From a virus, in IMG/VR virus record IMGVR_UViG_3300032245_001127: DNA of 64,000 bases. One strand, given 5' to 3'. Position 1 is the first letter of the stretch; each line of letters starts with the position of its first letter. The notes under the pieces were generated by a model. That model did not search any database, was not told the DNA's origin, and saw nothing but the letters and a program-made list of their open reading frames with translations. Below are positions 4,004 to 44,673 of this stretch, piece after piece. The translations under genes were made by a program, and so were the position numbers.

Positions 4004-4005
4004 GT

Positions 4006-24966: not shown

Positions 24967-25446
24967 TTAGAGTAATTTCGCAATTACTGTAACAAGAGCA
25001 ACTAATTCTCTTATAGATTCTTCGTCTTTTGGTAATGATATATTTGCTTTTGAATGAGCATTTTTTACTGATTTATCGAATCTTCCTGCAACTGCGATTG
25101 CGTATCTTACCTGTGCTTCTAAATCAGAAGACTCATTATCTTGAGAACAAAGTAAATCTGTTCGAGTAATAAAATCTTCAGTTGCTTCTGCTGACATTCG
25201 AATTATATCATCTCTTAAATCGGCTTGTCTATCGTCAAACATTGTTTGAGATATATCATGTAATAGATCTGGAGATTTAAGAGTAAATGCAGTTGCTAAT
25301 GCAATAGTATTTACAAATGTTCGATCTTTGTTCGATAATCCTAATAATCTTGATTTGTATTCGTCGACAAATGATGGGATGCCCTCTGAATAATTTATCC
25401 ACCAAGGAGCAATCGGTTCCATTTGTTCATTTATTATTTCATTCAT
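24967..25446 (-). CDS. Hypothetical protein, possibly a degenerate AhpD/CMD fold lacking CxxC
   Basis: Helical pattern GIPSFVDEYK..L...TIALATAFTLKSPDLL...YAIAVA...AH...IRELVALVTVI loosely follows AhpD. Confidence 0.4.
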   Translation of the reverse strand: MNEIINEQMEPIAPWWINYSEGIPSFVDEYKSRLLGLSNKDRTFVNTIALATAFTLKSPDLLHDISQTMFDDRQADLRDDIIRMSAEATEDFITRTDLLCSQDNESSDLEAQVRYAIAVAGRFDKSVKNAHSKANISLPKDEESIRELVALVTVIAKLL

Positions 25447-26672
25447 AAGTTTTCTATCTCCTCTTTTCTAGTTGTTAAACATAAAGTCGTTCTCGCTTTT
25501 AATTCGTCAAAATATTCGTCATCTACAATCAGTGGCAAAATTAGTTTAATCATTTTATGAGAAGTAGTTGCTGCCATTCCAGCATTACTTAAATGATATA
25601 AACCAATAGGGGTTGCAATGGGATTAGTTTGAATTGATCTCCAGCAACCTTTACCAATTATAGATGTCGCAAGTTTTTCATTCACAAGGAATGTTTCTAA
25701 TTCTTTTATCTTTTTACCAATGTAATTTTGATGATCTATTGTTAAATAACCTTTAGAATTTAATATCTCAATTACTCTATTTGCAAGTTCTACTCCGTAC
25801 ATGTTTGGTTGCCAAGTGTGCCCCCAATCCCAATTCTTTTTACGAACTCCTTTTGTAACTTTTTCATTCGCTAATGCTGCACTTAATGGAACCATTCCAT
25901 TTGTTAATGCTTTTCCGATTGTTACAATATCTGGAGTTACTCCATAATATGTATGTGTAAAAAGTGTTCCTACTTTACCACCATATCCTGCTACATCATC
26001 AACAATCATTAATATATTAAATTCATCACAAATTTGTCGAACAGTTTTCCAAAATTCTTGACTATATGGTGCAATCGTTTCATTCCAAGGCATACTTTCC
26101 ATTATACATCCACCAATAGTTGGATTTGCTTGTAAAGTGGTAATAAAAGAATCGGTAAGCATTGTTTCGTGTTCTATACGTTCAGCGTCCGTGTACCATT
26201 CTTTACCACGAATCATCTTAACACGACTTAGTTCTTTGCTCGGAAGCATATCATTTTTAAATTGTCGATTTAAATATGTAGTTCCATGATAGCAAGGATA
26301 AAAACTTACTAAATGTGTTTTTGGTCTTCCAATATTTACCCAATAAGTATCATGCATATAAATGGCAGCTTCGTTTGCATCTGAGCCTGAAACTGCATAA
26401 GCGATACTTTCCATATTTGCAGTAGAACAAAGCGTCTCATTTAGTTTTTCAACAGCTTCACTTGTTTCACCACTATTCCCACGAATAAAATCTATTTTAT
26501 TTTTTGAAAATATATCTCTTAAATCTTCAGCTTGATAACCTAAACCGAAAGCAGCATTACCAGATTGTATTTCTAAATGTGGAGGTGCATTTAAATAATG
26601 TACCCAATATTTTTCTGTAAAGGCAATTTCTTTAATATGTTCTTGAGTGCTATTTGGTTTTAATTCAATCAT
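25443..26672 (-). CDS. PLP-dependent class III aminotransferase (BioA-like), copy 1; likely start MIELKP at 26672
   Basis: SGSDANEAA, YHGTT, IVDDVAGYGGK, PDIVTIGKALTNG (PLP Lys), WGHTW. Confidence 0.88.
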   Translation of the reverse strand: MIELKPNSTQEHIKEIAFTEKYWVHYLNAPPHLEIQSGNAAFGLGYQAEDLRDIFSKNKIDFIRGNSGETSEAVEKLNETLCSTANMESIAYAVSGSDANEAAIYMHDTYWVNIGRPKTHLVSFYPCYHGTTYLNRQFKNDMLPSKELSRVKMIRGKEWYTDAERIEHETMLTDSFITTLQANPTIGGCIMESMPWNETIAPYSQEFWKTVRQICDEFNILMIVDDVAGYGGKVGTLFTHTYYGVTPDIVTIGKALTNGMVPLSAALANEKVTKGVRKKNWDWGHTWQPNMYGVELANRVIEILNSKGYLTIDHQNYIGKKIKELETFLVNEKLATSIIGKGCWRSIQTNPIATPIGLYHLSNAGMAATTSHKMIKLILPLIVDDEYFDELKARTTLCLTTRKEEIENL

Positions 26673-26760
26673 AAGTAACAAAAAATGGATACGACAGCTA
26701 ATAACCAACCAATAATAATTAGCACTAACCAAATATTAGGTTTATGTTGTTTTATATTCA

Positions 26761-28338: not shown

Positions 28339-28599
28339 TTATAAATCCGTTGTTTTATTTAATACTGATCCTGGAGTTTTCTTATGTATTTTGTTTAACA
28401 CTTCTTTAAAATCTTTCTTTCTTCCTTTTGCTGCACCAGTATTTCCAGTTGCATTCCATGGTGCTATGGTTCCAGGAAATTTAGTAAAAATTTGAATAAT
28501 GTTTTTATTCTTTTTTAAATATTTTTCTAATTCTTCATACTTCATTTCTTGTTCAAACGTTTCACCAGTTTTTGTATTTTCAAAACTATATATTGGCAT
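28339..28599 (-). CDS. FmdB-like small protein (no Cys)
   Basis: MPIYSFENTKTGETFE...FKEVLNKIHKKTPGS. Confidence 0.7.
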   Translation of the reverse strand: MPIYSFENTKTGETFEQEMKYEELEKYLKKNKNIIQIFTKFPGTIAPWNATGNTGAAKGRKKDFKEVLNKIHKKTPGSVLNKTTDL

Positions 28600-29158
28600 G
28601 TTCTAATCCTTTACTTTTATTTAGATACCAATCTGGAATAGATCTATTAGTCCATTTAGCGAAGTATGCTTTTGCAACTCTATAATAATTATGATAAGAT
28701 TGAATAGAGTTATTTGGAACTATACATTGTGGAAAATGTTTCATTGCTGGTGGTGGTTCTGAAAAAGATAAAACTGGAATATTTTTTGGAGTAATAGATA
28801 AAGCATCTTTTAATTTAGAATAGGTGCTGTGTATTTTATTATATCGATGAGTATATTCATTACATAAAGAAACCCATAATGTATAAAGATATTCATAATG
28901 AGTTTTACTCTCACGAACCCATATAGCACTCGGATGATTTTTCATTGTTGCTTTATACAACACATCATTCATTGTTGGGTGATTATAGGAAGTGTATTTG
29001 CGATTATTGATAGATTTTGAATTTACAGGATTGCCGTCTAGAACGCGATGCGCAGTCGACAATAACTGCGCATATTCTATAATCATTTTAACTACATGCT
29101 TATCGCAGTGCATTGTCGCACAAATTTGTGGATTTTTATCTAGAAAAAATATATTCAT
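28586..29158 (-). CDS. Pyrimidine-dimer DNA glycosylase (DenV-like)
   Basis: MNIFFLD....CA..HCDKHVVKMIIEYAQLLSTAH...HPSAIWVR...EYTHRY.K.H. Confidence 0.85.
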   Translation of the reverse strand: MNIFFLDKNPQICATMHCDKHVVKMIIEYAQLLSTAHRVLDGNPVNSKSINNRKYTSYNHPTMNDVLYKATMKNHPSAIWVRESKTHYEYLYTLWVSLCNEYTHRYNKIHSTYSKLKDALSITPKNIPVLSFSEPPPAMKHFPQCIVPNNSIQSYHNYYRVAKAYFAKWTNRSIPDWYLNKSKGLEHANI

Positions 29159-29652: not shown

Positions 29653-30234
29653 TTATATGTTAAAATATTTACCCTCTATTTCCATCACTGCAGTTACTCT
29701 CCAATGTCCTGGATTAGTTGCATTATTTACTAATTGATGTTGAATATCATGTCCATTAAATGCTCTAAATTCTCCAGTTTTCCAAACTCTTTTAACTCCA
29801 TCAAATATTAATGCTTGATTTTCTGGATCTGGTATATCAATTCCAAAACTTACTGTATATCCACTAATTGATGGATCTCCAACACTTTGACGTATCCAAT
29901 CCCAAACATAACCATCATGATGGACTGGAAGCATTTTTCCTGGACGAATAAAATTAATACACATATCAATCATTCCTTCAATTTGAAATGCTGCTTTCAT
30001 ACTTCGATTCCAACCCAAACTCCATTTTTCTTGTACTTTTCGACCATCTATTACAGGAAGAGCCTTAAAACCCCCTTTATTCGCTTCAGGCATTGCGTAT
30101 CTTTCGTCTGCGTTCACAGTATCAGTTTCTATACTAAAATTGTTTCTCCATGCTGCATAATCGTTTAAAAGGGCTTGCATGAGCTTTTGCAATGCACCAT
30201 AATCTTTATATTGTATTGGATCACCTAACCACAT
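29653..30234 (-). CDS. AspH/LpxO-like Fe(II)/2OG hydroxylase, paralogue A4 (likely start MWLG at 30234)
   Basis: INFIRPGKMLPVHHD...WKTGEFRAFNG...H...N...WRVTAVME; AGGAGG SD. Confidence 0.78.
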   Translation of the reverse strand: MWLGDPIQYKDYGALQKLMQALLNDYAAWRNNFSIETDTVNADERYAMPEANKGGFKALPVIDGRKVQEKWSLGWNRSMKAAFQIEGMIDMCINFIRPGKMLPVHHDGYVWDWIRQSVGDPSISGYTVSFGIDIPDPENQALIFDGVKRVWKTGEFRAFNGHDIQHQLVNNATNPGHWRVTAVMEIEGKYFNI

Positions 30235-30244
30235 AATTCCTCCT

Positions 30245-30820
30245 TTATAAAGCCCACTCTGTTTCATTTGTATCTACAATTGCAGACACTCTCCAATTTC
30301 CAGTTTTATTCCAAACTTTATGCATATAATTTCTTCCATCAAAAGCAACTATTTCGTTATTTGCATATGCTCTTGGAGCTGAATCGTTTTCAAATTCTAT
30401 TCCAAGTATTTTCGGATCATTGCTTGGCATATCAATACCGATTGCAATAGTCCAGCCTTTTACAGCATGACCAACTGATTCTTCAATTCTTTGCCAACTA
30501 CCAAAATCTTTATGTAATGGTAATCCACCAAATGGTGTAATGAAATTTACTATTGACTGAAATACTCCAGGAATTTCTTTTAAAACTGCAGTAGAACGAT
30601 GCCAGTCATTAGGTACAGCTTTTGTTCCTTGTATAAGTGGAATAGCCCACCAAGAATCTGCATGTTCATGTTCTGCGTTTGGATATTCGTAACGAAAAAC
30701 ATTAATTCCTTTTTCTTTAATATTATGATTCCTTGAAAATGAAAAATAATCTGCTTGTAAAGCAACTGATAACGATTTTAACATTTCATAATGTTTGAAT
30801 TTTTTTGGATCTATCCACAT
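30245..30820 (-). CDS. AspH/LpxO-like Fe(II)/2OG hydroxylase, paralogue A3
   Basis: VNFITPFGGLPLHKD...FDGRNYMHKVWN...WRVSAIVD. Confidence 0.8.
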   Translation of the reverse strand: MWIDPKKFKHYEMLKSLSVALQADYFSFSRNHNIKEKGINVFRYEYPNAEHEHADSWWAIPLIQGTKAVPNDWHRSTAVLKEIPGVFQSIVNFITPFGGLPLHKDFGSWQRIEESVGHAVKGWTIAIGIDMPSNDPKILGIEFENDSAPRAYANNEIVAFDGRNYMHKVWNKTGNWRVSAIVDTNETEWAL

Positions 30821-30821
30821 A

Positions 30822-31541
30822 TTATTCTCCTGTATAAGTAGCCCATCTATTTTGTAAATAATAGAGGTCTGAATTTTTTAAATTATATTGCGTATATTCT
30901 AAATCTATAATTGCTGTAACACGCCAGTCGTTGCTATGATTATATACATCATGATAATGTGTTTTTCCTTCGAAAGAAACCCACTCACCAGTATTCCAAC
31001 CTTTTTTTTCTGGTACTCCAGTGTATTTATTTTTAAAAACAAATCCCATATTAGTAGCATTAGTTGCTAATCCTAATACATTACTGAATCCATTTAGTGG
31101 TCTTCCTATATCTTTTTCAATTCTTTTCCATCCACCTGTATCATCATGAGATGGTAATTCTGATTTTGGTTTTACAAAATTAACAATAAATTGTACTATT
31201 CCTGGAAGTTTTAAAGCCAATTCTGCTGACTCTTTCCAGTCTTCAAAATTTTTCATTTTCTTATTTCCGCAATCAGTAAATACTGCATCGCAAAACCAAT
31301 ATTCGTTTGGATTATGTCGATCTTCAATAGATTCTGGTCTATGGTATAGATCGTCGCCACCTTTTACATGAGCATAATCTGGATAGACGTCATGGTGTTC
31401 AAATTTTTGAACTTGAATACGTTTTGCATATGCTTCATTTGTACCATATTTAAGTTTCCATTTTTCAAAGTCTGATTGTATTACTTTGCCTAAAAACATT
31501 AAATCGTCATAATTTTTATATAATTTAGTATCAATCCACAT
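30822..31541 (-). CDS. AspH/LpxO-like Fe(II)/2OG hydroxylase, paralogue A2
   Basis: VNFVKPKSELPSHDD...WNTGEWVSFEG..HYHDVYN...WRVTAIID. Confidence 0.8.
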   Translation of the reverse strand: MWIDTKLYKNYDDLMFLGKVIQSDFEKWKLKYGTNEAYAKRIQVQKFEHHDVYPDYAHVKGGDDLYHRPESIEDRHNPNEYWFCDAVFTDCGNKKMKNFEDWKESAELALKLPGIVQFIVNFVKPKSELPSHDDTGGWKRIEKDIGRPLNGFSNVLGLATNATNMGFVFKNKYTGVPEKKGWNTGEWVSFEGKTHYHDVYNHSNDWRVTAIIDLEYTQYNLKNSDLYYLQNRWATYTGE

Positions 31542-31545
31542 AATT

Positions 31546-32589
31546 CTATTCTCCCTTTGAATCCTCTATCATTTCTTCTGCATGTAATTCTATATAATTC
31601 ATTATATTATGATATTCTTGATATTCTATAAAATATTGTTTTAATAAATTAATCGTTTTAGATCCTAAATTGTTCCAATAAAAAAGCAATTCATCGTCTG
31701 GTATTGAATCAACATAATGTTTTATTCCACCATTATCTGTTAAATATTTAACATTCGAAAGAATATGTTTATAGATAATGCTTTCATTTTCTGAATCTAC
31801 AACTATATTTATCTCTCTCATAGTTGGTTCTTTTAAAGTTACATAATGATCGTTTTCTAATTTAATTGTCGGATGTGGTTTTGCAGGTAATATAATTGTT
31901 TCTTTATTACCATTAATAATAATTTCTTTTAATCTCTCATTAATAAAATGTTTTTTATCAATATCTATAACTGCTGTAATTCTCCACTCATTCGTGTCAT
32001 TCCACATACTATGACCAGCTTCTTTACCATCAAAACAAACTATTTCTCCTGCTAGTGGATATTTTTGAATTCCTTCGACATCCATTCCTACTGTTTTTTC
32101 ATTTTTGTTTTTCATTCCAGAAAATAATGTAACAACCGCACTATAACCATCTACTTTTCTTTTTAATTGTTCTTCAATACGATCCCAATTACTTGTATCT
32201 TTATGTGGAGTTATTTTACCATGTGGTTTGATAAAATTTATAAGTATTTGATACACTCCATTTAATTTACTCAATGCTTCCCAAGATTTAGGAAAAACTA
32301 TTTTATCCCAAACTCTATTATAATAACATGGAATAGTTTTCCAATCATCTGCATGTTTAAATTCTAAATTATTTGAAGGAACTTCAGTCAATTCGCCAAC
32401 ATATTGTTTTGGTACAATCGTTAAACGGCTAATTTTAGTTTTTGCTTTATCTCCAGTACCATAAGCACTTAATGCATCTGTTTCTATATTATGTTTTTGT
32501 ACCCAAGCTAATATATCTTGTTGTAAGTATGGAACTATTTTTTCTAAATCAGAATAATGATTATAATTTTTTATATTAATCCAAGACAT
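31546..32589 (-). CDS. AspH/LpxO-like hydroxylase A1 fused to a gp26-like C-terminal domain
   Basis: INFIKPHGKITPHKD...FDGKEAGHSMWN...WRITAVID, then IKLENDHYVTLKEPT...IYKHI...NL, resembling the C-terminal half of gp26. Confidence 0.75.
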   Translation of the reverse strand: MSWINIKNYNHYSDLEKIVPYLQQDILAWVQKHNIETDALSAYGTGDKAKTKISRLTIVPKQYVGELTEVPSNNLEFKHADDWKTIPCYYNRVWDKIVFPKSWEALSKLNGVYQILINFIKPHGKITPHKDTSNWDRIEEQLKRKVDGYSAVVTLFSGMKNKNEKTVGMDVEGIQKYPLAGEIVCFDGKEAGHSMWNDTNEWRITAVIDIDKKHFINERLKEIIINGNKETIILPAKPHPTIKLENDHYVTLKEPTMREINIVVDSENESIIYKHILSNVKYLTDNGGIKHYVDSIPDDELLFYWNNLGSKTINLLKQYFIEYQEYHNIMNYIELHAEEMIEDSKGE

Positions 32590-33664
32590 TTCTTCGTTCC
32601 CCTTTTCTTTTTATATCAAGTGTTAAACAATGAACACCACCATCCCAAAAACCACCTTGTCTTTGATTTGCCACATGTAATTTAATTCCGTGCGATTTAA
32701 AAAATTCTTCTAATTTTGGTTGATGGTTGCTTACAACTATGTTCGATTCATCTACCACTACGACATTACTATCAAAAGCAACTTCTTGTGCGAATCCACG
32801 CCACTCAGATATCCATTCTTTAATCCATTCAATACTATATTTTCCTTCTGAAGCTGTCATTCGATGATCGTATTGTATCATATCTATATTTGTAATTAAA
32901 TGACCAAAAGAATGTACATTTATATTTTTATTTTTTAATATAGCTTCTGGTACATAATTTATATCTGTACAAAAACAAGTAGTGTCATTAGTCATAAAAA
33001 AGAACTGATCGATATGTCCCCAACCACGATGTGGCTTATTTACGTTATCAATAAATTTTGTAGAAGGAATATTTCTTTTCATCCAATCTAATCCTAATGC
33101 TGTTCCAGGACCAGCTGAATTTACAATTATTGAATCGCCAACTTTATACATTGTTGCAGTATGCCATAATATTCTATTCACCAAATCTCTTCCATATCTG
33201 TCGCCACCATGTGTAAACCATTGAGTGTCAGGTGGAAAATCTTTAAGTAATGGAACTGGTGTGCTTATCCAGTTATAAGAATTTTTTGTGTACTTTTCTA
33301 AAAATATATTATAAAATGCTAATGACTCTAACCATCGATCAGCCATTGAAGTATATGCTGAATAGATTGTATTTCCATAAACAATATAGGAATCTCTTGG
33401 AACAATTGGTGCGATAGGATTTTTAATTTTAAATTTAGGAAGTTTTAAATTACTTTCAAACGGAAGTATTTCTGGACGATAAACCTTTACATTTAAAGAT
33501 TCAAATACTTTTTGCATATTATCTAAATCTTCTTTAGTTTCAAGAATAATGGGTTCTAACACACGCATTACTTCTGCACTTACAAATGATTTATAATAAT
33601 CAGGTGTAGGAATATTTCCTACTATAATTTCCTCTAAAGGATCATAATCTGTCCAAACACTCAT
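32576..33664 (-). CDS. Amidinotransferase (glycine/inosamine amidinotransferase family)
   Basis: TDYDPLEEIIVG, PRD, GHID (His), GGVHCLTLDI.R (Cys). Confidence 0.88.
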   Translation of the reverse strand: MSVWTDYDPLEEIIVGNIPTPDYYKSFVSAEVMRVLEPIILETKEDLDNMQKVFESLNVKVYRPEILPFESNLKLPKFKIKNPIAPIVPRDSYIVYGNTIYSAYTSMADRWLESLAFYNIFLEKYTKNSYNWISTPVPLLKDFPPDTQWFTHGGDRYGRDLVNRILWHTATMYKVGDSIIVNSAGPGTALGLDWMKRNIPSTKFIDNVNKPHRGWGHIDQFFFMTNDTTCFCTDINYVPEAILKNKNINVHSFGHLITNIDMIQYDHRMTASEGKYSIEWIKEWISEWRGFAQEVAFDSNVVVVDESNIVVSNHQPKLEEFFKSHGIKLHVANQRQGGFWDGGVHCLTLDIKRKGERRNVLD

Positions 33665-33670
33665 AATAAT

Positions 33671-34150
33671 TTATTTAGGTTGATAATCTTTACCCCATAC
33701 ATCTTTAAGATAATTCTCATCCCAAAAACTATAATAATTTGTTTTAATTAGAGAATCTCTTGCTTCATTTAATTCTTTTTTAGGTTGGCATAACATAAAA
33801 TTATAATAACCATTATTTGTTTGTACGCCATTTATAAATGTTTTACGATCTTTATGGTCAGCTAAAAACACTAAATCTGGAAATTTGTTCGCATAGAAAG
33901 AACACCAAGAATCCATATATTCAGGTGTAATGTTTAAATTTGTAACTGTATATACTTTAATTCTTCGAATATTCTCAACAGATGGAGCTATAAAATTTTC
34001 GTCCATATGTAAATATTCTGGAGTTGGTACACCAATACCTTTACTAAAAGGACAAATAGAATGACCATCGAGTGCTTGACGAGGAATTTTAATCCTCGCC
34101 AGCCACTCTTGTAATGCTTCTTTTGGTGTTATATTATGCTTGTCGTACAA
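33671..34150 (-). CDS. Hypothetical protein (DUF1415-like CPF motif)
   Basis: LQEWL...LDGHSICPFSK...FMLCQ...L..AR..L...YY..W. Confidence 0.55.
   Translation of the reverse strand: MYDKHNITPKEALQEWLARIKIPRQALDGHSICPFSKGIGVPTPEYLHMDENFIAPSVENIRRIKVYTVTNLNITPEYMDSWCSFYANKFPDLVFLADHKDRKTFINGVQTNNGYYNFMLCQPKKELNEARDSLIKTNYYSFWDENYLKDVWGKDYQPK
33672..33678 (-). promoter_or_regulatory. Late promoter CTAAATA ahead of the amidinotransferase and hydroxylases A1-A4
   Basis: ACCTAAATA, 7 nt before ATG 33664. Confidence 0.55.
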
Positions 34151-34625
34151 GATATTGATCCTTCATTGAAATAGGATCAAAATATTCTATAATCATACTT
34201 TTCACCATTTCAATATCAAAAGTTTTACATGAAAACAAATCAAAATACATATCACCATTTATATCTAAAAAGTGTATAGTTAATGAACTTGTTGTCAATG
34301 GTTGTATTACTGTCCATCCAGCAATTTCTGGCTTTTCAGCAAAGTGTGTAATCCATGGGGTTCCCCATGCATTCATGTTTATTCTTTTTAATAAATCCAC
34401 TACGAAAGTTTCTAGAATTTTAGGTTCATTAAAATTCTTTTTACATCCTTTCGCATCTAATATTAAATGATATCCCCATGATTGAATAGCAGTATTTGCA
34501 TATTTTTCATGGAATACTCTGCCCACATTATTATTTCCACTGTTCTCAAGTGAAGAAGGAACAGATTTTATTTTTGAAGTTTCGCGTTGGGGAAACTCCT
34601 GTAGATTTAACTTTGCTTGAGTCAT
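34134..34625 (-). CDS. Pyruvoyl-dependent decarboxylase, SpeD/AdoMetDC family
   Basis: WGYHLILDAKGC...GWTVIQPLTTSSLTIHF...YFDLFSCKTFD. Confidence 0.85.
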   Translation of the reverse strand: MTQAKLNLQEFPQRETSKIKSVPSSLENSGNNNVGRVFHEKYANTAIQSWGYHLILDAKGCKKNFNEPKILETFVVDLLKRINMNAWGTPWITHFAEKPEIAGWTVIQPLTTSSLTIHFLDINGDMYFDLFSCKTFDIEMVKSMIIEYFDPISMKDQYLVRQA

Positions 34626-34628
34626 CTT

Positions 34629-35804
34629 TTACTTATTTACCTCTATTACTTGCGACATACATTTTCCTCCGAAACCGAAAGAATTATTTAATGTACGCAA
34701 GACTTTTTTGTTTGTTTTTAAATTCTCACGAACCAAAATTCCTTTTGTATCGCAAGATGCCTGTTTTAAATTTTGTATATGTGGAATAATTCCCTCTTTC
34801 ATTGAAATGATTGAGTAAATGCATTCTAATATACCAGCTGCAGCAAGAGTGTGTCCTATTTTGGATTTTGGAGCCCAAATAGGTTTTTCACCTACGAAAC
34901 TGACTACTGTTTCATACTCGATTGGATCACCAATTGGTGTAGAAGTTGCGTGCGCACACACAAAATCTATATCATTCACATGACCCATTGCTTTAGACAT
35001 AGAAATACGAGCACCTCGTCCATCATTTGCAGGACTCGTCATATCAAGTGCATCACTCGCCATACCACAAGGATATAAAGTTGCATGCACTGTACTGCCA
35101 TATTTCTTGACCATTTTTTCACTTTGTAATATAAGTACACCACATCCATCTCCCATCAGAAATCCTGAACGAGAATCATCGAAAGGCATACTTGTATTCG
35201 CAACTGCACCTAAGGTGTTAAAATATTTAATCGCCATAGGAAAACAACCTGCATCTGCACCTCCTACAATGACATATTCATATTCATCGCAGAGACGCAT
35301 TCCATAATCAATAGTTACAAGTCCAGTTGAACAACTCGCGAAAGTTGCAGCACTTAGACCCATAAATTTGTAATGAGAAGTAATATGAGAACATCCCATG
35401 TCTGGAATACGATTAGCACTCTTACGTGGGTTTACTCTTTTATTACTTTTCGTCGGCAAATACAACTCATCTAAAAATTCTGTATCATTTGACACAGTTG
35501 ATAGAAGAGTTGCCACATCGTAGTGATGTGGTAATTTTGACATAATCAGTGCATCATTCACAGCATGCAACATCATTTTCTGTGCATTTGTTAATGAACG
35601 TAACATCTTATTGTCAAATTCTTTTGGTATAATACAAGTATTAGGATCAAATATTGCTCCTCTATATACTTTACTATTGTCCGCAATCAGTTCTGGTATA
35701 TCTTTAGAATAATCATTATTATCTAACATTCGATTAAAACAATCTTTAGGATTATTCCCAAGACTATCAATCATACCATAACCTACAACATAAATTTTAT
35801 TCAT
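34629..35804 (-). CDS. fabF: Beta-ketoacyl-ACP synthase II (FabF-like)
   Basis: Cys-His-His triad: ASCSTG, AHATSTPIGD, KSKIGHTLAAAG; PFDDSRSGF.MGDG; NSFGFGG. Confidence 0.92.
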   Translation of the reverse strand: MNKIYVVGYGMIDSLGNNPKDCFNRMLDNNDYSKDIPELIADNSKVYRGAIFDPNTCIIPKEFDNKMLRSLTNAQKMMLHAVNDALIMSKLPHHYDVATLLSTVSNDTEFLDELYLPTKSNKRVNPRKSANRIPDMGCSHITSHYKFMGLSAATFASCSTGLVTIDYGMRLCDEYEYVIVGGADAGCFPMAIKYFNTLGAVANTSMPFDDSRSGFLMGDGCGVLILQSEKMVKKYGSTVHATLYPCGMASDALDMTSPANDGRGARISMSKAMGHVNDIDFVCAHATSTPIGDPIEYETVVSFVGEKPIWAPKSKIGHTLAAAGILECIYSIISMKEGIIPHIQNLKQASCDTKGILVRENLKTNKKVLRTLNNSFGFGGKCMSQVIEVNK

Positions 35805-36447
35805 CGTTTACTTCATCATTAATTATAAAATTCTTCATACTATTTAGTGCATCGTCCCACTCAAGAGGTTTCGGATAAGTCAACCCATCAACGTTTATAG
35901 ACTCGTTTGAGTTTAATTTGTAAAACCAAGCACAAATTACATGACGATAATTAGAGCCATTTTCTATGTTGTGTGGCTGTCCAGTATTTGCTAATATGGG
36001 TTCATTCGGCAATATAGTATGTCTTGCTATTTCTTTTTTTAAATTAAAATCAGGAAATTTCATCGTCGGACCACTGTCATTAGTTGTAATAGTATCATAC
36101 CATGACGGATCTTTTACGTCATACCAAACCATTGAATGATCGTTAGTTGGACAATAACACCATATAATTTTAACAATATTGTCTATCCAATCGTCATTAT
36201 CAGTATGTACATACATACGATAATTCGGTTTACTTGAAAATCTTTCTATTCTTAATACACCCAATCCTATATTTTTTGCCCAATCAATTAAACTTGGATT
36301 AATTAAATGTCTTTCTCCATAATGATCTGCGTATTTTGCATCAATCGATTGATCTTTTTCTTTTGGAAAAACATAATCGTTTGTAAATGGATGTTCAAAT
36401 GGTAATTTTAATTTACGAAATGAACGATTTAAGTTTTGTAATTGCAT
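35797..36447 (-). CDS. Cupin-fold Fe(II)/2OG-type oxygenase, paralogue B6
   Basis: PNYRMYVHTD...ILANTGQPHNIEN...RHVIC. Confidence 0.68.
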   Translation of the reverse strand: MQLQNLNRSFRKLKLPFEHPFTNDYVFPKEKDQSIDAKYADHYGERHLINPSLIDWAKNIGLGVLRIERFSSKPNYRMYVHTDNDDWIDNIVKIIWCYCPTNDHSMVWYDVKDPSWYDTITTNDSGPTMKFPDFNLKKEIARHTILPNEPILANTGQPHNIENGSNYRHVICAWFYKLNSNESINVDGLTYPKPLEWDDALNSMKNFIINDEVNDE

Positions 36448-36991
36448 AATCCCATTCTATGTTAATATTTGTATAATTAAACCAAGTTAAACTTACTGCC
36501 CATCTTGTACTGCTAGTAGCATTAGTCATTGAATGTGGTACTCCAATGTTCACTAATGATGGAAATTTTATTTCAGATCTATGTAATAAATTACATTCAT
36601 CATCTTTCCAGTTGAGTGCGTATGGTGTTGTTGAAATAGCATATGCTTCTTTTTCTGTTCCTGGAGCAACAATTGAATGTTTTTTAGGATTTTTTGGTTG
36701 CCACCATTCCATATAAGAACCTGATTCTTCACAAAATTGCCAATTAATCGCAACTGAATCGCTCAATTGTTCGCCATCAACATGGATAGGTAATCGAAAA
36801 GCAGGAGGTGAAATAAAAACATCTGCATTCTTTAATATAAATCCTTTTAATTCAAACCAATCTATTAATTCTTTATCAATTAAATTTTTTGGTATTGGAA
36901 AATGTCCTTTTTTTGGAAGTAGTTTTTTCCAATCTTCTACGTTAAATAATTTTTTAAATGGCAAATTTAAATGAACGCAATATTTGTTCAT
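36413..36991 (-). CDS. Cupin-fold Fe(II)/2OG-type oxygenase, paralogue B5
   Basis: FISPP..RLPIHVDG...AINW...PSLVNIGVPHSMTN...RWAVSL. Confidence 0.72.
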   Translation of the reverse strand: MNKYCVHLNLPFKKLFNVEDWKKLLPKKGHFPIPKNLIDKELIDWFELKGFILKNADVFISPPAFRLPIHVDGEQLSDSVAINWQFCEESGSYMEWWQPKNPKKHSIVAPGTEKEAYAISTTPYALNWKDDECNLLHRSEIKFPSLVNIGVPHSMTNATSSTRWAVSLTWFNYTNINIEWDYAITKLKSFIS

Positions 36992-37671
36992 ATTATATAA
37001 TCCTTAAATAATTCTATTGCTTCAGGCATTGTAACAATATCTTGTAATATCTTTGCATTTACAGCTTTATCTCTTTCGATTGCGATTGTTTCAAGTGGCA
37101 TACCTTTTAATATTGCTTCATTTGTAGTAAATACATCTTTAATTAAAATTTTATCAAATACACAAGATAAACATTTTCTTGGACTAAATGTAGTTTTTAC
37201 ATTATGTGGTTGCCCAACTTGTACTATTGCTACATCTATATCTGCAGAATCAATTAAATCAACTTCTTCAGGATACCAATATAAATCTTTTGTATTAATT
37301 GGTCTTGCATCTTGATTAGCATATAGCACTCCTTCTCTTTTTGCCTTTGCTTCTTTATGTGGAGAAAACCAATTCATTAAACTATTTCCTCTAGGATTAT
37401 ATGCAAAATTTAATTTAAACTCATCATGTAATTCATTTCCATCTATATGAATAGGCATAGAATGATTTGCAGGATTTAAAAATAATTCTATGTCAGTAAT
37501 GCTTAATCCTATTGTTTCTAACCATAACAAATATTCTGGATTATGATATTTTATTTCAACCCAAATTTTAGTTTGTTTTGTAAACGAATATGACTGCATC
37601 CAATCCATTCCTTCTTTTGTTAATGGTTCTGGAATATTTTCTTTATTTAAATGTTTAAAATTAAATGACAT
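36988..37671 (-). CDS. Cupin-fold Fe(II)/2OG-type oxygenase, paralogue B4
   Basis: MPIHIDG...KLNF...IVQVGQPHNV...RKCLS. Confidence 0.72.
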   Translation of the reverse strand: MSFNFKHLNKENIPEPLTKEGMDWMQSYSFTKQTKIWVEIKYHNPEYLLWLETIGLSITDIELFLNPANHSMPIHIDGNELHDEFKLNFAYNPRGNSLMNWFSPHKEAKAKREGVLYANQDARPINTKDLYWYPEEVDLIDSADIDVAIVQVGQPHNVKTTFSPRKCLSCVFDKILIKDVFTTNEAILKGMPLETIAIERDKAVNAKILQDIVTMPEAIELFKDYII

Positions 37672-38263
37672 ATTTTTTAAAAACTTCTAATCCTTCTTCC
37701 ATATTCATTCCACCAAGATCTATAAATTCTTGTTCTCGTTTTAATCCTTCTTTCCAAATACTAATATTAAATAATTCAAGTGGTTCAGATCCATTAATAA
37801 CTTGATGTGGTACTCCTACACAAACTAAAGATGGACTTCCTGTAGTTTGATTTGCTTTTTCTTCAACTTCATTTTCTTTAAATTGAAGACTGTATGGACT
37901 ATTCGCATTATTTGATACATTATCGCTAACTCCTGAAGTTAATGGTTCAAAAAATCTGAATGAATGTTTTCCACCAAATGCCCAATTAAATTTTGCTTTG
38001 TGGCAATATCGAGAGCCATCAATATGAATACCCATAGCAAAATTCGGTTGAAAATAAAAGTATTCACAACCAACTATAAGATATCCGTATGATTTAAAAA
38101 AAGAATGTGCTACTGAACTTGCAGCTGATGGTGGTAGATCTAATCCATAATTTTGAACTAATGGATCTTTCTCTATTTCTTTTAATGCTATTTCTCTATA
38201 TGATTCTAAACCGAATGGTGTTGGTGATTTAAAGGGTAATGACAAATCGACGATGTATTTCAT
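37661..38263 (-). CDS. Cupin-fold oxygenase, paralogue B3 (distal Arg absent)
   Basis: MGIHIDG...KFNW...PSLVCVGVPHQVIN...LELFNI. Confidence 0.68.
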   Translation of the reverse strand: MKYIVDLSLPFKSPTPFGLESYREIALKEIEKDPLVQNYGLDLPPSAASSVAHSFFKSYGYLIVGCEYFYFQPNFAMGIHIDGSRYCHKAKFNWAFGGKHSFRFFEPLTSGVSDNVSNNANSPYSLQFKENEVEEKANQTTGSPSLVCVGVPHQVINGSEPLELFNISIWKEGLKREQEFIDLGGMNMEEGLEVFKKYVI

Positions 38264-38266
38264 AAT

Positions 38267-39073
38267 TTAATTAATTTGTAAATGCTGTAAACGAGGATAT
38301 ACTTCATCCCATCTACCAATAGAATCTTTTCCAATTAATTTAAGTGAATAACTTAAACAAACTCTCGGACCAGATGTAGTATTTACAACATTATGATATA
38401 TACCAATATTTGTTAATGATGGTTGTGTTAAATCGAATGATAAATTGTGTTGATGAACCATACGAGGACTGTTAGGACCATCTGATAATGCTACTTCTTT
38501 TACGATATAGTATTTTACATCATGATCTCCTGGAACATTATCTTTTGTTGATTCGTCTATGCTAAAATAATTTTGTTGGCTTAATCCATCTTGTTTAAAA
38601 CAATAAACGAAATTAAGTTTAGTTGATTGCTGCCAAGCATCTTTATGAGCACCCAACCACATATTTGCTGGTGTAATAAAAATATCCCAATGAGCAATTT
38701 CTAATCCAACATCTTTTAATACACGTATAAATCTTGGATGTATAAAGTCTTCATTTACATCATTATCGATAATATCGATGCAACTATACCAAAATGGCAA
38801 TTTATCATGCCATTTAATGATTGGTTCTTTAGAAGTATATGATGCTTCTTTTAAATTTCTTTCCCATTTAAGTGGATGGATTAAATATTCGATTGCTTGA
38901 ATTTCTTTTGGTATAACTTTCTCATCAAACCAATATGGTGGTATTGGAAGTGAATCAAACCATTCCTGAGATGTATATGGTCTTGTAAAACCTGCTGGCA
39001 TTTGTAACCTTACTGCATAAGGTGGACAACTATTGCCTATGTGTGTTTCTGGATAAATTGTAAATATACTCAT
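38267..39073 (-). CDS. Cupin-fold Fe(II)/2OG-type oxygenase, paralogue B2
   Basis: WLGAHKD...KLNFVY...PSLTNIGIYHNVVN...RVCLSY. Confidence 0.7.
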   Translation of the reverse strand: MSIFTIYPETHIGNSCPPYAVRLQMPAGFTRPYTSQEWFDSLPIPPYWFDEKVIPKEIQAIEYLIHPLKWERNLKEASYTSKEPIIKWHDKLPFWYSCIDIIDNDVNEDFIHPRFIRVLKDVGLEIAHWDIFITPANMWLGAHKDAWQQSTKLNFVYCFKQDGLSQQNYFSIDESTKDNVPGDHDVKYYIVKEVALSDGPNSPRMVHQHNLSFDLTQPSLTNIGIYHNVVNTTSGPRVCLSYSLKLIGKDSIGRWDEVYPRLQHLQIN

Positions 39074-39078
39074 GCTAC

Positions 39079-39085
39079 TATTTAG
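39079..39085 (-). promoter_or_regulatory. Late promoter CTAAATA ahead of oxygenases B2-B6, fabF and the SpeD-like gene
   Basis: ACCTAAATA in a 13-bp intergenic gap, 5 nt before ATG 39073. Confidence 0.68.
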
Positions 39086-39086
39086 G

Positions 39087-39875
39087 TTAATTTAAAACTA
39101 AATCGGATAAAATAGGATAAATTGCTTTCCAATGTGTGTAGTTATCACCATAGTATTCAGCTTTAAAAAGACCAATTTTATAAGATAAACAAATTCTTAC
39201 GCCACTACTTTTATTTATTACATTATGCATTCTTCCTACATTAGTTAATGATGGTTGTGTCCAATCATTAGATAAATTGTGTTCGTAAATAAGTTTATCA
39301 TTTTCATCATAATAGTTTTGTTGACTTAATCCACTTTTATCAAAACAATATACAAAATTTAATTTAGTACATTCATATGTAGTATCTTGGTGCGTTCTTA
39401 ACCAACCATTGGGACCAGAAATAAAAATATCCCAACCAAGCAATTTAAGTTTTCTAGAATTTAAAAAAGAAGTAAAACGAGGAGACACTAACTCATCACA
39501 CACGTTATTATCTACAATATCGATACTATCTTCCCAGTCTTCAGGTGCTCCAATATATGGTATTTTCATTCTATTTTCAGAATAACTTATTTTAGAATAA
39601 CTAGAAAATTTTTCAATATCATCTTTAGATTGAGTATATCTTACACCAGATGTATAACCTGATTCGTTGATAGTTGTTTTATTCCAGACTATTTCTTTTG
39701 AATAATTATGAATTGTAGGATGAAGTATTAAAGAATATGGTTTATATTCTTTTCTTGGATTAATTTCCCATTTTTTTGGATATGGAAGTAACGAAAACCA
39801 AGATTCCAAAGAATATGGTTTTAAAAATGGTTTTGGTAATTGCAGACGAACTGCATATGGTTCATAACTAATCAT
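39087..39875 (-). CDS. Cupin-fold Fe(II)/2OG-type oxygenase, paralogue B1
   Basis: WLRTHQD...KLNFVY...PSLTNVGRMHNVIN...RICLSY; close duplicate of B2. Confidence 0.7.
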   Translation of the reverse strand: MISYEPYAVRLQLPKPFLKPYSLESWFSLLPYPKKWEINPRKEYKPYSLILHPTIHNYSKEIVWNKTTINESGYTSGVRYTQSKDDIEKFSSYSKISYSENRMKIPYIGAPEDWEDSIDIVDNNVCDELVSPRFTSFLNSRKLKLLGWDIFISGPNGWLRTHQDTTYECTKLNFVYCFDKSGLSQQNYYDENDKLIYEHNLSNDWTQPSLTNVGRMHNVINKSSGVRICLSYKIGLFKAEYYGDNYTHWKAIYPILSDLVLN

Positions 39876-39883
39876 ATTAATTT

Positions 39884-39960
39884 TGGCTCACTCGGCAAGA
39901 CTCGAACTTGCAACCTCCAGATTCGTAGTCTGGCATTCTATCCAATTGAACTACGAGTGA
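39884..39960 (-). tRNA. tRNA-Arg(ACG) with encoded CCA
   Basis: Acceptor TCACTCG/CGAGTGA-G-CCA; D arm TAGTTCAATTGGATAGAAT; anticodon arm CCAGA-CTACGAA-TCTGG; T arm GCAAG-TTCGAGT-CTTGC. Confidence 0.95.
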
Positions 39961-39970
39961 ATAAAATAGA

Positions 39971-40126
39971 TTATGGTGTTGGTATGACTATACTTTTTAA
40001 TCCATCTACAATTTTGTCCATCGGTGTAGTAACTTCCTTTGGAGTATTTGTACAAGAAATTAAAAAAAATGCTATAATTGTTATTGTAGCAAAAAATATA
40101 GCAGTTTTATATAAAGTTTTATCCAT
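39971..40126 (-). CDS. Small lipoprotein (51 aa; not in ORF track)
   Basis: Manual: MDKTLYKTAIFFATITIIAFFLISCTNTPKEV...; LISC lipobox. Confidence 0.55.
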   Translation of the reverse strand: MDKTLYKTAIFFATITIIAFFLISCTNTPKEVTTPMDKIVDGLKSIVIPTP

Positions 40127-40973
40127 TTAATTCACTCGTTAATGTTCGATTAATTTGAACTAGATTTAATTTTTCTGCAAGTTCTAGTACTCTTGCAGTC
40201 GGATCGCTTATTCCATCTCCAAAACTATAATCCATTGGTTTATAGTGATGATACTCGTGTTGTCCTTCTCCGAAATTGATAAATGCTCCACCGATTGGAT
40301 CTAATGAAACTATATCTTTTGGCTTTTCCCCAGAATGACTTACTGCGTTTGTTATTCCCATTCCATGAATACCAAATACAACAGCAATTGCTGCACCAAT
40401 AATTACAGGTAATCCACCTAATATTCCTAAATGAACTTTAGCTAATTCTGAAAATACAAAAAGAGATACCCAAAAAAGAATTAAAGTTTGTACTGCTTTA
40501 AAATGATATCGTAATGCAATTGTATTTCTATGCAATCCTGCTGTCATTTTTGGTGGAACATCTTCTTTTCGCCAATCCCATAAATGAAAATAAGATCGCC
40601 AAAATCCTATTCTCCACGGACTATGTGGATCTTTATCAGTATCTAAGTAACTATGATGCATTCTATGCAGTGCTGCCCAACCAAGTGGTGTTCCAATACC
40701 AGAATATATTGCAAATATATTAGATAAATGTTCTAATGTTTTACTTTTAAATTTTACTGAACCATGTGCGAGTGCACGATGCGCATATCCTGATACTGCA
40801 AATGCGCCAATAAACCAAAAACTGATCGCAACAAAAATTGTAGTAATTGTTCCATATTTAAAAGCAAGCAATGCCAAATAATGTACAAAAATATAATAAG
40901 TCAATCTTAAATAAAGATTGTTTCGAGTAGATATATCTTTAAAAAAAGATTTAAACTTTGTTAGATTTAACAT
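40119..40973 (-). CDS. Membrane fatty-acid desaturase (delta-9-like)
   Basis: His boxes HRALAH, HRMHH(..D.DKDPHSP) and GEGQHEYHH; TM segments. Confidence 0.92.
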   Translation of the reverse strand: MLNLTKFKSFFKDISTRNNLYLRLTYYIFVHYLALLAFKYGTITTIFVAISFWFIGAFAVSGYAHRALAHGSVKFKSKTLEHLSNIFAIYSGIGTPLGWAALHRMHHSYLDTDKDPHSPWRIGFWRSYFHLWDWRKEDVPPKMTAGLHRNTIALRYHFKAVQTLILFWVSLFVFSELAKVHLGILGGLPVIIGAAIAVVFGIHGMGITNAVSHSGEKPKDIVSLDPIGGAFINFGEGQHEYHHYKPMDYSFGDGISDPTARVLELAEKLNLVQINRTLTSELNG

Positions 40974-43399: not shown

Positions 43400-43798
43400 C
43401 TATGTTAGTGATGGAAGTAACATTTTTGCTACTTCTTTAGTTATGTTATTATACAATTTAGTTAATGATTGATCTTTAATTGCAAGAATAATTTTTGCTT
43501 CTTTTGGATCTACACTTTCTAATAATTGAATAAACAAAGATTCTCTTTTTAAAGCAGGTAAATCTGCTCTTCTAAAGATATAAAACTTTTTTGCTTCCAT
43601 ATATAAATTAGATGCTGCCATTCCTGATGGTTCAACAGCTGATTTATATGGTGGGGTTGTTTCTGGTAATAACCATTTTAAATTAATATCAAAATTATTT
43701 TGTAATATTAATTTTAATGCTGTGTTTGATTTATAGTTATTAATCTTAGTTATATCGTTATTTATCTCTTCTAAGATTTCCCAAATATACTTCGTCAT
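43400..43798 (-). CDS. Conserved T4-like hypothetical protein (usually next to RNase H)
   Basis: WLLPE..PPYK...KRESLFIQLLESVDPKEAKIILAIKD..L..LY. Confidence 0.75.
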   Translation of the reverse strand: MTKYIWEILEEINNDITKINNYKSNTALKLILQNNFDINLKWLLPETTPPYKSAVEPSGMAASNLYMEAKKFYIFRRADLPALKRESLFIQLLESVDPKEAKIILAIKDQSLTKLYNNITKEVAKMLLPSLT

Positions 43799-44673
43799 TA
43801 AAACTCCTCTATTTCTTGTAATAATAAATTACAACGATTATTCATAAGATAAGTGTATATACTCATCTTATCACCCTTTGGTTTGTTATTCAAGTACACT
43901 TCCATTATATTTTTAGTAATATCTTCAGGGATTTTATCAAGATTTACTAACGCTTCATTCCTTTCCCAATTACGTCTTTGCTCATCATTCTCACAAGCAT
44001 TAATACCTTTACTGAAAAAAGGTGTAAGTCTTTTTTTAGTAATTGGTCGCTGACGTGCATCAGGTTGAGTGAATATATCGTCAGGAGATAATATATTAGG
44101 AATACCATCTCCAGCATCACCACGCACTATATGTTCTATAATAAAATTATCAAGTTCATCATATCTTAATGTAACTTTTTTCTTTTGTATTGGTGAAAAT
44201 TGTTCTACGTTACCATGTTTTTGTAACTGTTTAAAATCTTTATCAGAAGATATTATAATATGTTTTTCTAATGGATAGGATTTAACTAATATCGCAATCA
44301 CATCATCAGCTTCTGTGTTATCTAAATGCATCACTTTGTATGGAAAATATTCAACTAAATCTTTTCTTATTTCTGACATTGTATCGAATATTAATTTCCA
44401 ATCTAAACCACTATCTTCTCTCGCTTGTTTACGATGTGCTTTATATAAAGGAAATACTCTTTTTCTCCAATAGTCTTTACCATCTGCACAAACTACTAAT
44501 TCTCCATAGTCAGCATATTTCTTTTTATAAAATTTAAGAGTAGAAATAACAGCATGTCTTATAATATTTTTTACAGAATTAGCATCACCACCTTTAACTA
44601 AATCAGGTTTAAATGATAATATATTTGAAATTGCTACTTGTGAATAATCTATAAGAATCATACTGGTAACCAA
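43798..44673 (-). CDS. rnh: T4-type RNase H (5'-3' exonuclease); likely start MILIDYSQ
   Basis: MILIDYSQ; YWRKRVFPLYKAHRK; EADDVIA; SSDKDF.QLQ; GDAGDGIPNILS. Confidence 0.93.
   Translation of the reverse strand: MVTSMILIDYSQVAISNILSFKPDLVKGGDANSVKNIIRHAVISTLKFYKKKYADYGELVVCADGKDYWRKRVFPLYKAHRKQAREDSGLDWKLIFDTMSEIRKDLVEYFPYKVMHLDNTEADDVIAILVKSYPLEKHIIISSDKDFKQLQKHGNVEQFSPIQKKKVTLRYDELDNFIIEHIVRGDAGDGIPNILSPDDIFTQPDARQRPITKKRLTPFFSKGINACENDEQRRNWERNEALVNLDKIPEDITKNIMEVYLNNKPKGDKMSIYTYLMNNRCNLLLQEIEEF

Follow-up and report, generated by a model that had tools for sequence, protein, structure and literature searches.

Sixteen auxiliary genes of an uncultured freshwater T4-like phage: two juxtaposed modules rather than one pathway?

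Does a tightly packed run of auxiliary genes in a phage genome necessarily encode one biosynthetic pathway? The question is raised by a block of genes at positions 29653-40973 of a 64,000-nt stretch (hereafter the window) of an uncultured freshwater T4-like phage, IMG/VR virus record IMGVR_UViG_3300032245_001127, which was subjected to open reading frame (ORF), Pfam, NCBIfam, PDB and ARAGORN analyses. The minus strand of this block carries 16 ORFs and one tRNA-Arg(ACG), which follow one another in the order of transcription as a desaturase, a lipoprotein, the tRNA, six proteins with an HxD..H motif, a FabF-like β-ketoacyl synthase (KS), a SpeD-like decarboxylase, a Cys-Pro ("CPF") protein, an amidinotransferase-like enzyme and four AspH-like hydroxylases (Table 1). 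The tRNA excepted, the intergenic spacing is -35 to +13 nt. All of the genes listed in a previous sequence-only reading of this DNA, as well as their tight co-oriented arrangement, were recovered; the identities given to them proved essentially right in the light of Pfam and PDB matches, motifs and a structural model, and the catalytic residues reported as intact (KS Cys-His-His, desaturase His boxes, HxD..H and amidinotransferase His/Cys) are indeed kept.

The interpretation that we favour, by a little more than even chance, is that the block consists of two juxtaposed auxiliary modules accompanied by two fast-turning-over arrays of small Fe(II)/2-oxoglutarate (2OG) oxygenases, and not of one pathway. 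It is built on protein families, catalytic motifs, folds and co-occurrence, from which the substrates, products and timing proposed below are extrapolated. Module A, putatively acting on lipids, would comprise the Δ9-type desaturase, the small lipoprotein, the HxD..H paralogues and the FabF-like KS. Module B, putatively devoted to guanidino/polyamine chemistry, would comprise the SpeD-family decarboxylase and the CPF protein coupled to the amidinotransferase-like enzyme, together with the AspH-like hydroxylases.

Co-occurrence of the genes across viral loci

With the KS, the amidinotransferase or the desaturase as anchor, about 170 viral loci were collected and scored by tblastn and by hidden Markov models derived from our own alignments. 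The whole block was found, in order, in 15 freshwater-type contigs (KS identity of 86-88%) and in the more distant contig L027 (78%), the number of gene copies in these contigs ranging from 2 to 6 for the HxD..H and from 4 to 6 for the AspH-like genes. In 13 KS contigs read as marine (KS identity of 53-58%) the interval between the RNase H and denV genes holds a desaturase, a small membrane protein, two HxD..H genes and the KS, and no SpeD, CPF, amidinotransferase or AspH gene was detected between RNase H and denV; the KS is followed there by unrelated MazG-like, NT5C, HD and cytochrome c genes. A further lineage, represented by contigs L143 and L144, has 4-5 HxD..H genes immediately ahead of the KS. 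Among the 18 distinct KS anchors, HxD..H genes lie within 6 kb in 16 and a desaturase in 13 (in two more at ~8 kb), and the amidinotransferase, CPF, SpeD and AspH genes are present at only nine, all of which belong to one lineage group. The KS, HxD..H and desaturase genes occur together without an amidinotransferase in at least four lineages.

Seen from the other side, a CPF gene was found within 5 kb of 33 of the 80 distinct amidinotransferase anchors, down to ~24% amidinotransferase identity. It is usually located immediately upstream of the amidinotransferase gene on the same strand, the two genes either overlapping by 1-4 nt or standing 6 nt apart. A class III aminotransferase and an AspH-like gene accompany 16 of the 80 anchors each, a KS or SpeD only 11. 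KS contigs of 117-131 kb contain no amidinotransferase, and amidinotransferase contigs of up to 175 kb contain no KS. Several operons illustrate the company that the amidinotransferase keeps, the genes being named in their order ahead of it: three AspH-like genes and an aminotransferase in L044; an HxD..H oxygenase, an aminotransferase and a PF13640 2OG oxygenase in L060; and an AspH-like gene and CPF in L042, where the aminotransferase is on the opposite strand.

Two cores are thus recurrent, namely HxD..H plus KS (with or without the desaturase), and CPF and/or aminotransferase plus amidinotransferase (with or without 2OG hydroxylases), and all of the genes co-occur only in the freshwater lineage of the window phage itself. 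Independent assortment across related phages had been named in the sequence-only reading as the observation that would speak against its single pathway, and it is what was found for KS/desaturase versus amidinotransferase/SpeD everywhere outside one lineage; the single-pathway claim is therefore not upheld. The synteny of FabF, amidinotransferase, SpeD and class III aminotransferase, which the same reading had proposed for examination, turned out to be real in part: the amidinotransferase does travel with the aminotransferase and with oxygenases, but the KS stands apart. As to the class III aminotransferase genes that flank the block of the window, distant relatives (25-32% identity) adjoin the amidinotransferase in other phage lineages, and the copy downstream of the block (PF00202, Table 1) is a possible associate of the guanidino module.

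Ketosynthase, desaturase and the search for a carrier protein

The KS is a divergent FabF-like elongating enzyme. It clears the Pfam cut-offs with 83.7 bits for PF00109 and 76.4 bits for PF02801 (cut-off of 20.8 each), its best matches in the PDB are FabF structures (1e-39), and its translation retains the Cys-His-His triad, the catalytic Lys and the GFGG motif (ASCSTG, HATSTPIGD, KSKIGH, NSFGFGG). It scores below the FabF equivalog TIGR03150 (205 bits versus a cut-off of 493.75), and no NCBIfam KS model reaches its cut-off. The protein belongs to a large metagenomic clade (52-60% identity), the contigs of which are chiefly phage-sized; no close homologue was found in cultured phages. The KS matches in records labelled as phage (24-31% identity) were rejected as bacterial fabF/fabB genes, the records being mostly unannotated or bacterial-looking.

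In the desaturase, the three histidine boxes HRxxxH, HRMHH (HxxHH..DPHSP) and HEYHH are invariant throughout alignment A6. The DPHSP motif is typical of Δ9 desaturases. The window protein has a weak NCBIfam match to DesA and no Pfam match at E<=0.01; its 41%-identical marine orthologue (L028:6491-7438) passes PF00487 with 34.3 bits (cut-off of 29.7).

The sequence-only reading had noticed no acyl carrier protein (ACP) or acyltransferase, and its pathway would therefore need host ACP or genes outside the window. Such genes were looked for in the complete relative G002, i.e. the record behind contig L011, which is 144.8 kb in length and has terminal repeats: no PP-binding domain (PF00550), FabD (PF00698) or PlsC-type acyltransferase was found in it, while control genomes gave matches. 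Nor was any adenylation or ligase function by which the two chemistries could be joined found in this genome. As no carrier is encoded by G002, the KS would need host ACP and host malonyl-ACP; and since ACP, FabD and acyltransferase are all missing, nothing ties the acyl chain to the guanidino chemistry.

Two further ORFs of the marine relatives deserve mention. A 93-aa ORF ahead of the marine KS was considered as an ACP and rejected, as it has no ACP match or motif. A 326-aa ORF with a PP-binding domain at residues 186-231 is present in marine KS-bearing relatives (L110:967-1947; ~72.3-73.3 kb in G006; also in G005), at a distance of ~30 kb or more from the KS, and is absent from the complete freshwater relative.

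SpeD-like decarboxylase and amidinotransferase-like enzyme

The SpeD-family protein retains a Ser, a His at +5 and a Cys at +20 (TSSLTIH..FSC), which is the spacing of S63/H68/C83 in the Thermotoga maritima enzyme (criteria of PMC10407285). It has HFLD in place of HTWPE, so the conserved Pro of genuine AdoMet decarboxylases (AdoMetDC) is absent, and it fails the AdoMetDC equivalog TIGR03330 (26.6 bits versus a cut-off of 75.65). Spermidine synthase (PF01564) was not found in the complete relative G002. Judging from its sequence, the protein is probably not an AdoMet decarboxylase, and is most likely specific for ornithine or arginine. The SpeD homologues of freshwater myophages were demonstrated biochemically to be ornithine decarboxylases (PMC9992855). 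The window protein resembles the phage SpeDC and SpeDA enzymes, SpeD homologues neofunctionalised to decarboxylate ornithine or arginine (PMC9992855, PMC10407285), in its class 1b pyruvoyl fold, in the retained Ser/His/Cys, in the absence of the AdoMetDC Pro and in the lack of a spermidine synthase; moreover, the diagnostic Gln, Thr, Phe and Tyr of SpeDC all occur in its central region, their presence being read by region and not position by position. An adjacent amidinotransferase is mentioned in neither of the two papers.

The amidinotransferase-like protein is a pentein enzyme whose only significant PDB matches are HsvA (3e-19), StrB1, AGAT and SxtG (to 3e-14); it gave no Pfam match at E<=0.01 and no NCBIfam match at E<=0.001. 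The equivalents of AGAT Cys407, His303 and Asp305/Asp170 are kept (GGVHC, GHID, PRD) and are conserved in 23 phage homologues. The position of the third residue of the AGAT triad, Asp254 (FDAAD), is occupied by His (LWHTATMY or LFHAAN) in the window protein and in many phage lineages (L031-L109). Annotated homologues from cultured phages are limited to Campylobacter phages CP220 and F379, in which they are labelled as hypothetical proteins (26% identity).

HsvA (PDB 5wpi), the best solved homologue albeit one of low identity, is part of the hsv operon that produces phevamine A (PMC13123061). The parallel goes beyond the enzyme itself in that the phage amidinotransferase neighbours a polyamine-metabolism enzyme, a member of the SpeD family; in contrast to the hsv operon, no HsvB/HsvC-like partners were seen at the phage locus, where the CPF protein is the partner.

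Two nearby amidinotransferase-like paralogues are carried by several jumbo-phage-type contigs, i.e. L096 (9944-11224 and 11643-12635), L085, L087, L090, L103 and L104. In L096 the CPF/amidinotransferase pair is located directly behind a T4 baseplate-protein gene (PF12322).

Cys-Pro protein

The CPF family has 3131 detectable members, none of which carries a Pfam domain or an informative name. When 185,579 cellular genomes, one per species, were searched, only seven matches were obtained, every one of them on contigs of metagenome-assembled genomes (MAGs), and the family is almost confined to phages. Two of these, L176 (183 kb) and L177 (148 kb), are Haliscomenobacter MAG contigs, and their gene order near CPF mirrors that of L096: a baseplate-like gene (280 aa) comes first, and genes of 168, 147 and 111 aa follow. 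Phage DNA binned into the MAG is the probable source of both "bacterial" contigs.

Invariant features of the family are W16, P23, C33 and P34 as well as a motif near the C-terminus, Y..W...YL; C33-P34 is unchanged across 35 diverse members. Of these members, 27 match PF21780 (DUF6875) at E<=10, weakly, with a best value of 0.0015; the one scored in detail reached 16.5 bits (cut-off of 24.5) over residues 9-45, i.e. the Cys-Pro region. DUF6875 has been described as a thiolate-haem protein, "cytochrome P422", with a four-strand sandwich fold (bioRxiv 10.64898/2025.12.11.692455), and AglA, a guanidine N-hydroxylase of the YqcI/YcgG family, likewise has a four-strand "sandwich" fold and binds haem through the N-terminal Cys44 (PMC12866846). 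A conserved N-terminal Cys as a possible haem ligand (C33) is what CPF has in common with both. They differ in size, the phage protein having 159 aa versus 243 in AglA and 180-300 in P422, and CPF lies under every curated threshold. Assignments to YqcI/YcgG by sequence (no PF08892 match, only noise in the PDB profile search, nothing in Foldseek) and to DUF1415 (no PF07209 match) were tried and discarded. CPF is therefore treated here as a candidate thiolate-haem oxygenase, a lead given by two weak lines, fold and profile, and not by family membership.

Two arrays of oxygenases

The six HxD..H proteins, previously called cupins, have no Pfam match. An AF2 model of one of them, the 192-aa paralogue (pLDDT of 90.6), displays the double-stranded β-helix (DSBH) fold of 2OG/Fe(II) oxygenases, and the alignments (A2/A5) reveal invariant H, D, G and H residues, so that both the fold, as seen in the single modelled paralogue, and the 2-His-1-carboxylate triad of DSBH oxygenases are present. 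The best Foldseek matches of the model are the protein hydroxylases MINA53, NO66 and YcfD, and its VIA matches include AspH, PHD2 and a viral collagen prolyl hydroxylase. The 200-aa paralogue, as read from its sequence, differs from the other five in having no Arg after the second His, and may have an unusual mode of 2-oxoglutarate binding.

The AspH-like array consists of a 347-aa protein, which passes PF05118, and three smaller paralogues, which do not. The latter are 29-35% identical to one another, and HxD..H..WR is invariant in the array (alignment A3). As for an LpxO-type assignment, the 347-aa protein, the sole paralogue scanned, gave no NCBIfam match. It has a C-terminal extension of ~120 aa that the other three paralogues lack. 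The idea that all ten oxygenases belong to a single sequence superfamily was dropped, the hhalign probability of A2 versus A3 being just 0.6; the A2 profile has no sequence match in the PDB, and A3 has marginal Tet-like matches only.

Promoter-like motifs

Late-promoter motifs had been reported from within the block. The motif CTAAATA does occur there three times on the coding strand, and the one ahead of the KS is seen again in three lineages; on the other hand, the motif is not enriched in the window (18 copies found versus 24.9 expected), and the copy in front of the amidinotransferase is not conserved. The latter overlaps the CPF stop codon and was rejected as a promoter. A further copy (39079-39085) occupies part of the 13 nt that separate the gene for the 268-aa HxD..H paralogue from the one ahead of it. 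Of the copies in the block only the one upstream of the KS recurs in relatives: either the T4 late-promoter octamer TATAAATA or CTAAATA is present in the ~70 nt that precede the KS start at 18 of 28 KS loci from three lineages, loci which are not mutually independent. It is chiefly found at -24/-25 (range of ~24-37 nt), with a background of 0.05 per 70 nt. The octamer TATAAATA is depleted in the window (2 versus 17.9 expected), and σ70-like sites are below the shuffle expectation (68 versus 89). Seventeen of the 18 CTAAATA copies in the window are on the minus strand. From the sequence motif, it appears plausible that the KS and the genes that follow it are transcribed late.

Proposed roles of the modules and competing explanations

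In Module A, the desaturase would introduce a Δ9 double bond into host acyl chains, the KS would elongate them by condensing host acyl-ACP with host malonyl-ACP, and the HxD..H 2OG oxygenases may act as lipid or protein hydroxylases, the presumed outcome being host membrane acyl chains that are longer, more unsaturated and possibly hydroxylated. In Module B, the amidino group of arginine would be transferred to an amine acceptor with the release of ornithine; the decarboxylase could either convert this ornithine to putrescine, which would pull the reaction forward, or supply a diamine acceptor from ornithine or arginine; and the guanidino product might then be oxidised by the candidate thiolate-haem enzyme CPF and/or by the AspH-like hydroxylases. 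A more specific version, in which CPF, as a minimal thiolate-haem oxygenase, and the variant amidinotransferase are a pair almost confined to phages that makes an N-hydroxylated guanidine from arginine during infection, the decarboxylase, aminotransferase and 2OG hydroxylases being accessory, is put forward as a tentative and rather unlikely one.

Several observations weigh against a division into two modules. One marine lineage (L060, L061, L166 and L172), in which desaturase-like, HxD..H, aminotransferase and amidinotransferase genes lie within 6 kb, blurs the boundary between them. The KS-bearing phages are syntenic relatives, and hence their gene order reflects ancestry in part, not function; many of the loci are contig fragments, in which absence within 5-10 kb does not equal absence from the genome. 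The presence of His in place of Asp254 may indicate that the chemistry of this amidinotransferase clade is altered. The lineage of the window phage (16 contigs) keeps the order of the whole block, with the KS stop codon 3 nt from the start of the SpeD-like gene, and therefore co-transcription of both modules is likely in that lineage. The same order, together with co-oriented genes that overlap or abut and the proximity of a desaturase-like gene to the amidinotransferase in the L060-type lineage, is what argues for all 16 genes forming one late pathway for a hydroxylated amino- or guanidino-acyl moiety that decorates the virion or the host envelope. Tight phage gene blocks, it should be borne in mind, need not be single biosynthetic clusters. 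Since KS/desaturase is inherited independently of amidinotransferase/SpeD in every other lineage, none of the functions that might join the two chemistries (ACP, FabD, acyltransferase, adenylation, ligase) turned up in the complete relative, and the copy number of the oxygenases is too unstable to be usual for fixed tailoring steps, the single pathway seems hardly likely.

The opposite extreme would be that the region is hyperplastic and has become a dumping ground of unrelated auxiliary genes that have no functional links even inside the modules. The unrelated MazG-like, NT5C, HD and cytochrome c genes in the RNase H-denV interval of marine relatives fit such a picture, as do at least one lone KS (L020; the contig of L025 ends early downstream), the many amidinotransferases without a recognised neighbour and the fact that 2OG oxygenase arrays are common in T4-like cyanophages (PMC3037559). 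It does not sit well with CPF and amidinotransferase genes that are adjacent or overlapping across lineages as distant as 24% identity, with the aminotransferase/amidinotransferase pairing that recurs in other lineages, or with the HxD..H genes that immediately precede the KS at 16 of the 18 distinct loci, and is regarded as distinctly improbable. Somewhat more room, though still little, is left for the ten oxygenases being protein hydroxylases that act on virion or host proteins in the style of ribosomal oxygenases, prolyl hydroxylases or AspH, in which case the amidinotransferase and CPF may likewise modify a protein side chain. This is where the Foldseek and VIA matches of the modelled HxD..H paralogue point; AspH (PF05118), going by its name, hydroxylates proteins, one AspH-like paralogue has an extra C-terminal domain, and the CPF/amidinotransferase pair of L096 stands behind a baseplate-protein gene.

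Should the two-module reading be true, abundant aquatic T4-like phages carry a lipid set that hijacks host ACP to alter membrane lipids, and a guanidino module whose core is almost absent from cellular genomes widens the known virus-encoded polyamine/arginine metabolism. CPF would then be a miniature member among the newly recognised thiolate-haem hydroxylase folds, and an N-hydroxylated guanidine, if it is made, would represent a class of metabolite that no virus is known to make.

Relation to described phages

The sequence-only reading had overstated the novelty of the set, since fabF, a stearoyl-CoA desaturase, speH, 2OGFeDO and a divergent AspH were already listed for the freshwater pelagimyophages ("fonsimyophages", PMP-D) of Zaragoza-Solas et al. 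2020 (PMC7029224). The PMP-D phages, too, are T4-like and freshwater, and their gene list matches; identity with that group is deduced from these features and not from the sequences of PMP-MAVG-15/-20. The window phage is probably a Fonsibacter-infecting pelagimyophage, the host being taken from the literature only. In PMC7029224 the genes are only listed, and the amidinotransferase, CPF, oxygenase arrays and operon structure go unmentioned. The fabF and desaturase genes were considered there to be unique to the freshwater group, whereas here homologues (53-58% and 32-43% identity, respectively) were found on contigs read as marine.

Phage-borne lipid desaturases are known (PMC5776448), and T4-like cyanophages have multiple 2OG-Fe(II) oxygenase genes of ~190-240 aa per genome (PMC3037559). 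What distinguishes the window from these is that the desaturase is linked to a KS and that ten oxygenases from two sequence families are gathered in one block. Of greatest interest among what is left is the CPF/amidinotransferase core, which is specific to phages; no published account of a Cys-Pro protein in partnership with a phage amidinotransferase was found, and amidinotransferases are not mentioned in the paper on polyamine metabolism in the virosphere (PMC9992855).

Genomic setting and minor features

The block is located in the variable region between RNase H and denV of a T4-like myophage. It is flanked upstream by RNase H (43798-44673), an FkbM methyltransferase and a class III aminotransferase, and downstream by denV (28586-29158), a GH19 lysozyme, a PD-(D/E)XK nuclease and a second class III aminotransferase. 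The G+C content of the window is 28-36%, and nearly all genes in this part of it are on the minus strand. The best cultured relatives in a search with RNase H are cyanomyophages (~42-44% identity), while megablast of the block against cultured phages gave no DNA match.

Table 1. Coordinates of the genes and other features of the block and of the aminotransferase genes outside it
Feature	Position	Strand	Size	Evidence
Membrane fatty-acid desaturase, Δ9-type	40119-40973	-	284 aa	Three His boxes
Putative lipoprotein	39971-40126	-	51 aa	Signal peptide and L-I-S-C lipobox
tRNA-Arg (ACG)	39884-39960	-		ARAGORN; 10 nt past the lipoprotein gene, 8 nt ahead of the next ATG
HxD..H DSBH oxygenase paralogue	39087-39875	-	262 aa	A2/A5 alignments, invariant H, D, G, H
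HxD..H DSBH oxygenase paralogue	38267-39073	-	268 aa	A2/A5 alignments
HxD..H DSBH oxygenase paralogue	37661-38263	-	200 aa	A2/A5 alignments
HxD..H DSBH oxygenase paralogue	36988-37671	-	227 aa	A2/A5 alignments
HxD..H DSBH oxygenase paralogue	36413-36991	-	192 aa	AF2 model
HxD..H DSBH oxygenase paralogue	35797-36447	-	216 aa	A2/A5 alignments
CTAAATA, late-type promoter-like motif	35841-35847	-		Motif only; 37 nt upstream of the KS ATG
Divergent FabF-like elongating β-ketoacyl synthase	34629-35804	-	391 aa	PF00109, PF02801
SpeD-family pyruvoyl decarboxylase	34134-34625	-	163 aa	PF02675, 49 bits (cut-off 25); phrog_3125
Cys-Pro (CPF) protein, candidate thiolate-haem oxygenase	33671-34150	-	159 aa	
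Amidinotransferase-like pentein enzyme	32576-33664	-	362 aa	PDB matches HsvA, StrB1, AGAT, SxtG
AspH-like hydroxylase with ~120-aa C-terminal extension	31546-32589	-	347 aa	PF05118, 26.3 bits (cut-off 22.6); A3
AspH-like hydroxylase paralogue	30822-31541	-		PF05118, 16-22 bits for the three smaller paralogues, under cut-off
AspH-like hydroxylase paralogue	30245-30820	-		As above
AspH-like hydroxylase paralogue	29653-30267	-		As above
Class III aminotransferase, outside the block	25443-26732	-		PF00202, 145 bits
Class III aminotransferase, further copy outside the block	45986-47206			

The 51-aa lipoprotein is conserved at 71-80% in some freshwater relatives. In the marine contig L028 a 145-aa cytochrome c-like ORF (13038-13475, PF00034) is situated between the KS and denV, beside MazG-like, NT5C-like and HD genes. 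The block of L060 adjoins a radical SAM protein with an HMPTM zinc ribbon (3125-4273, minus strand) and an Mtd_N-domain protein (1770-3113, plus strand).

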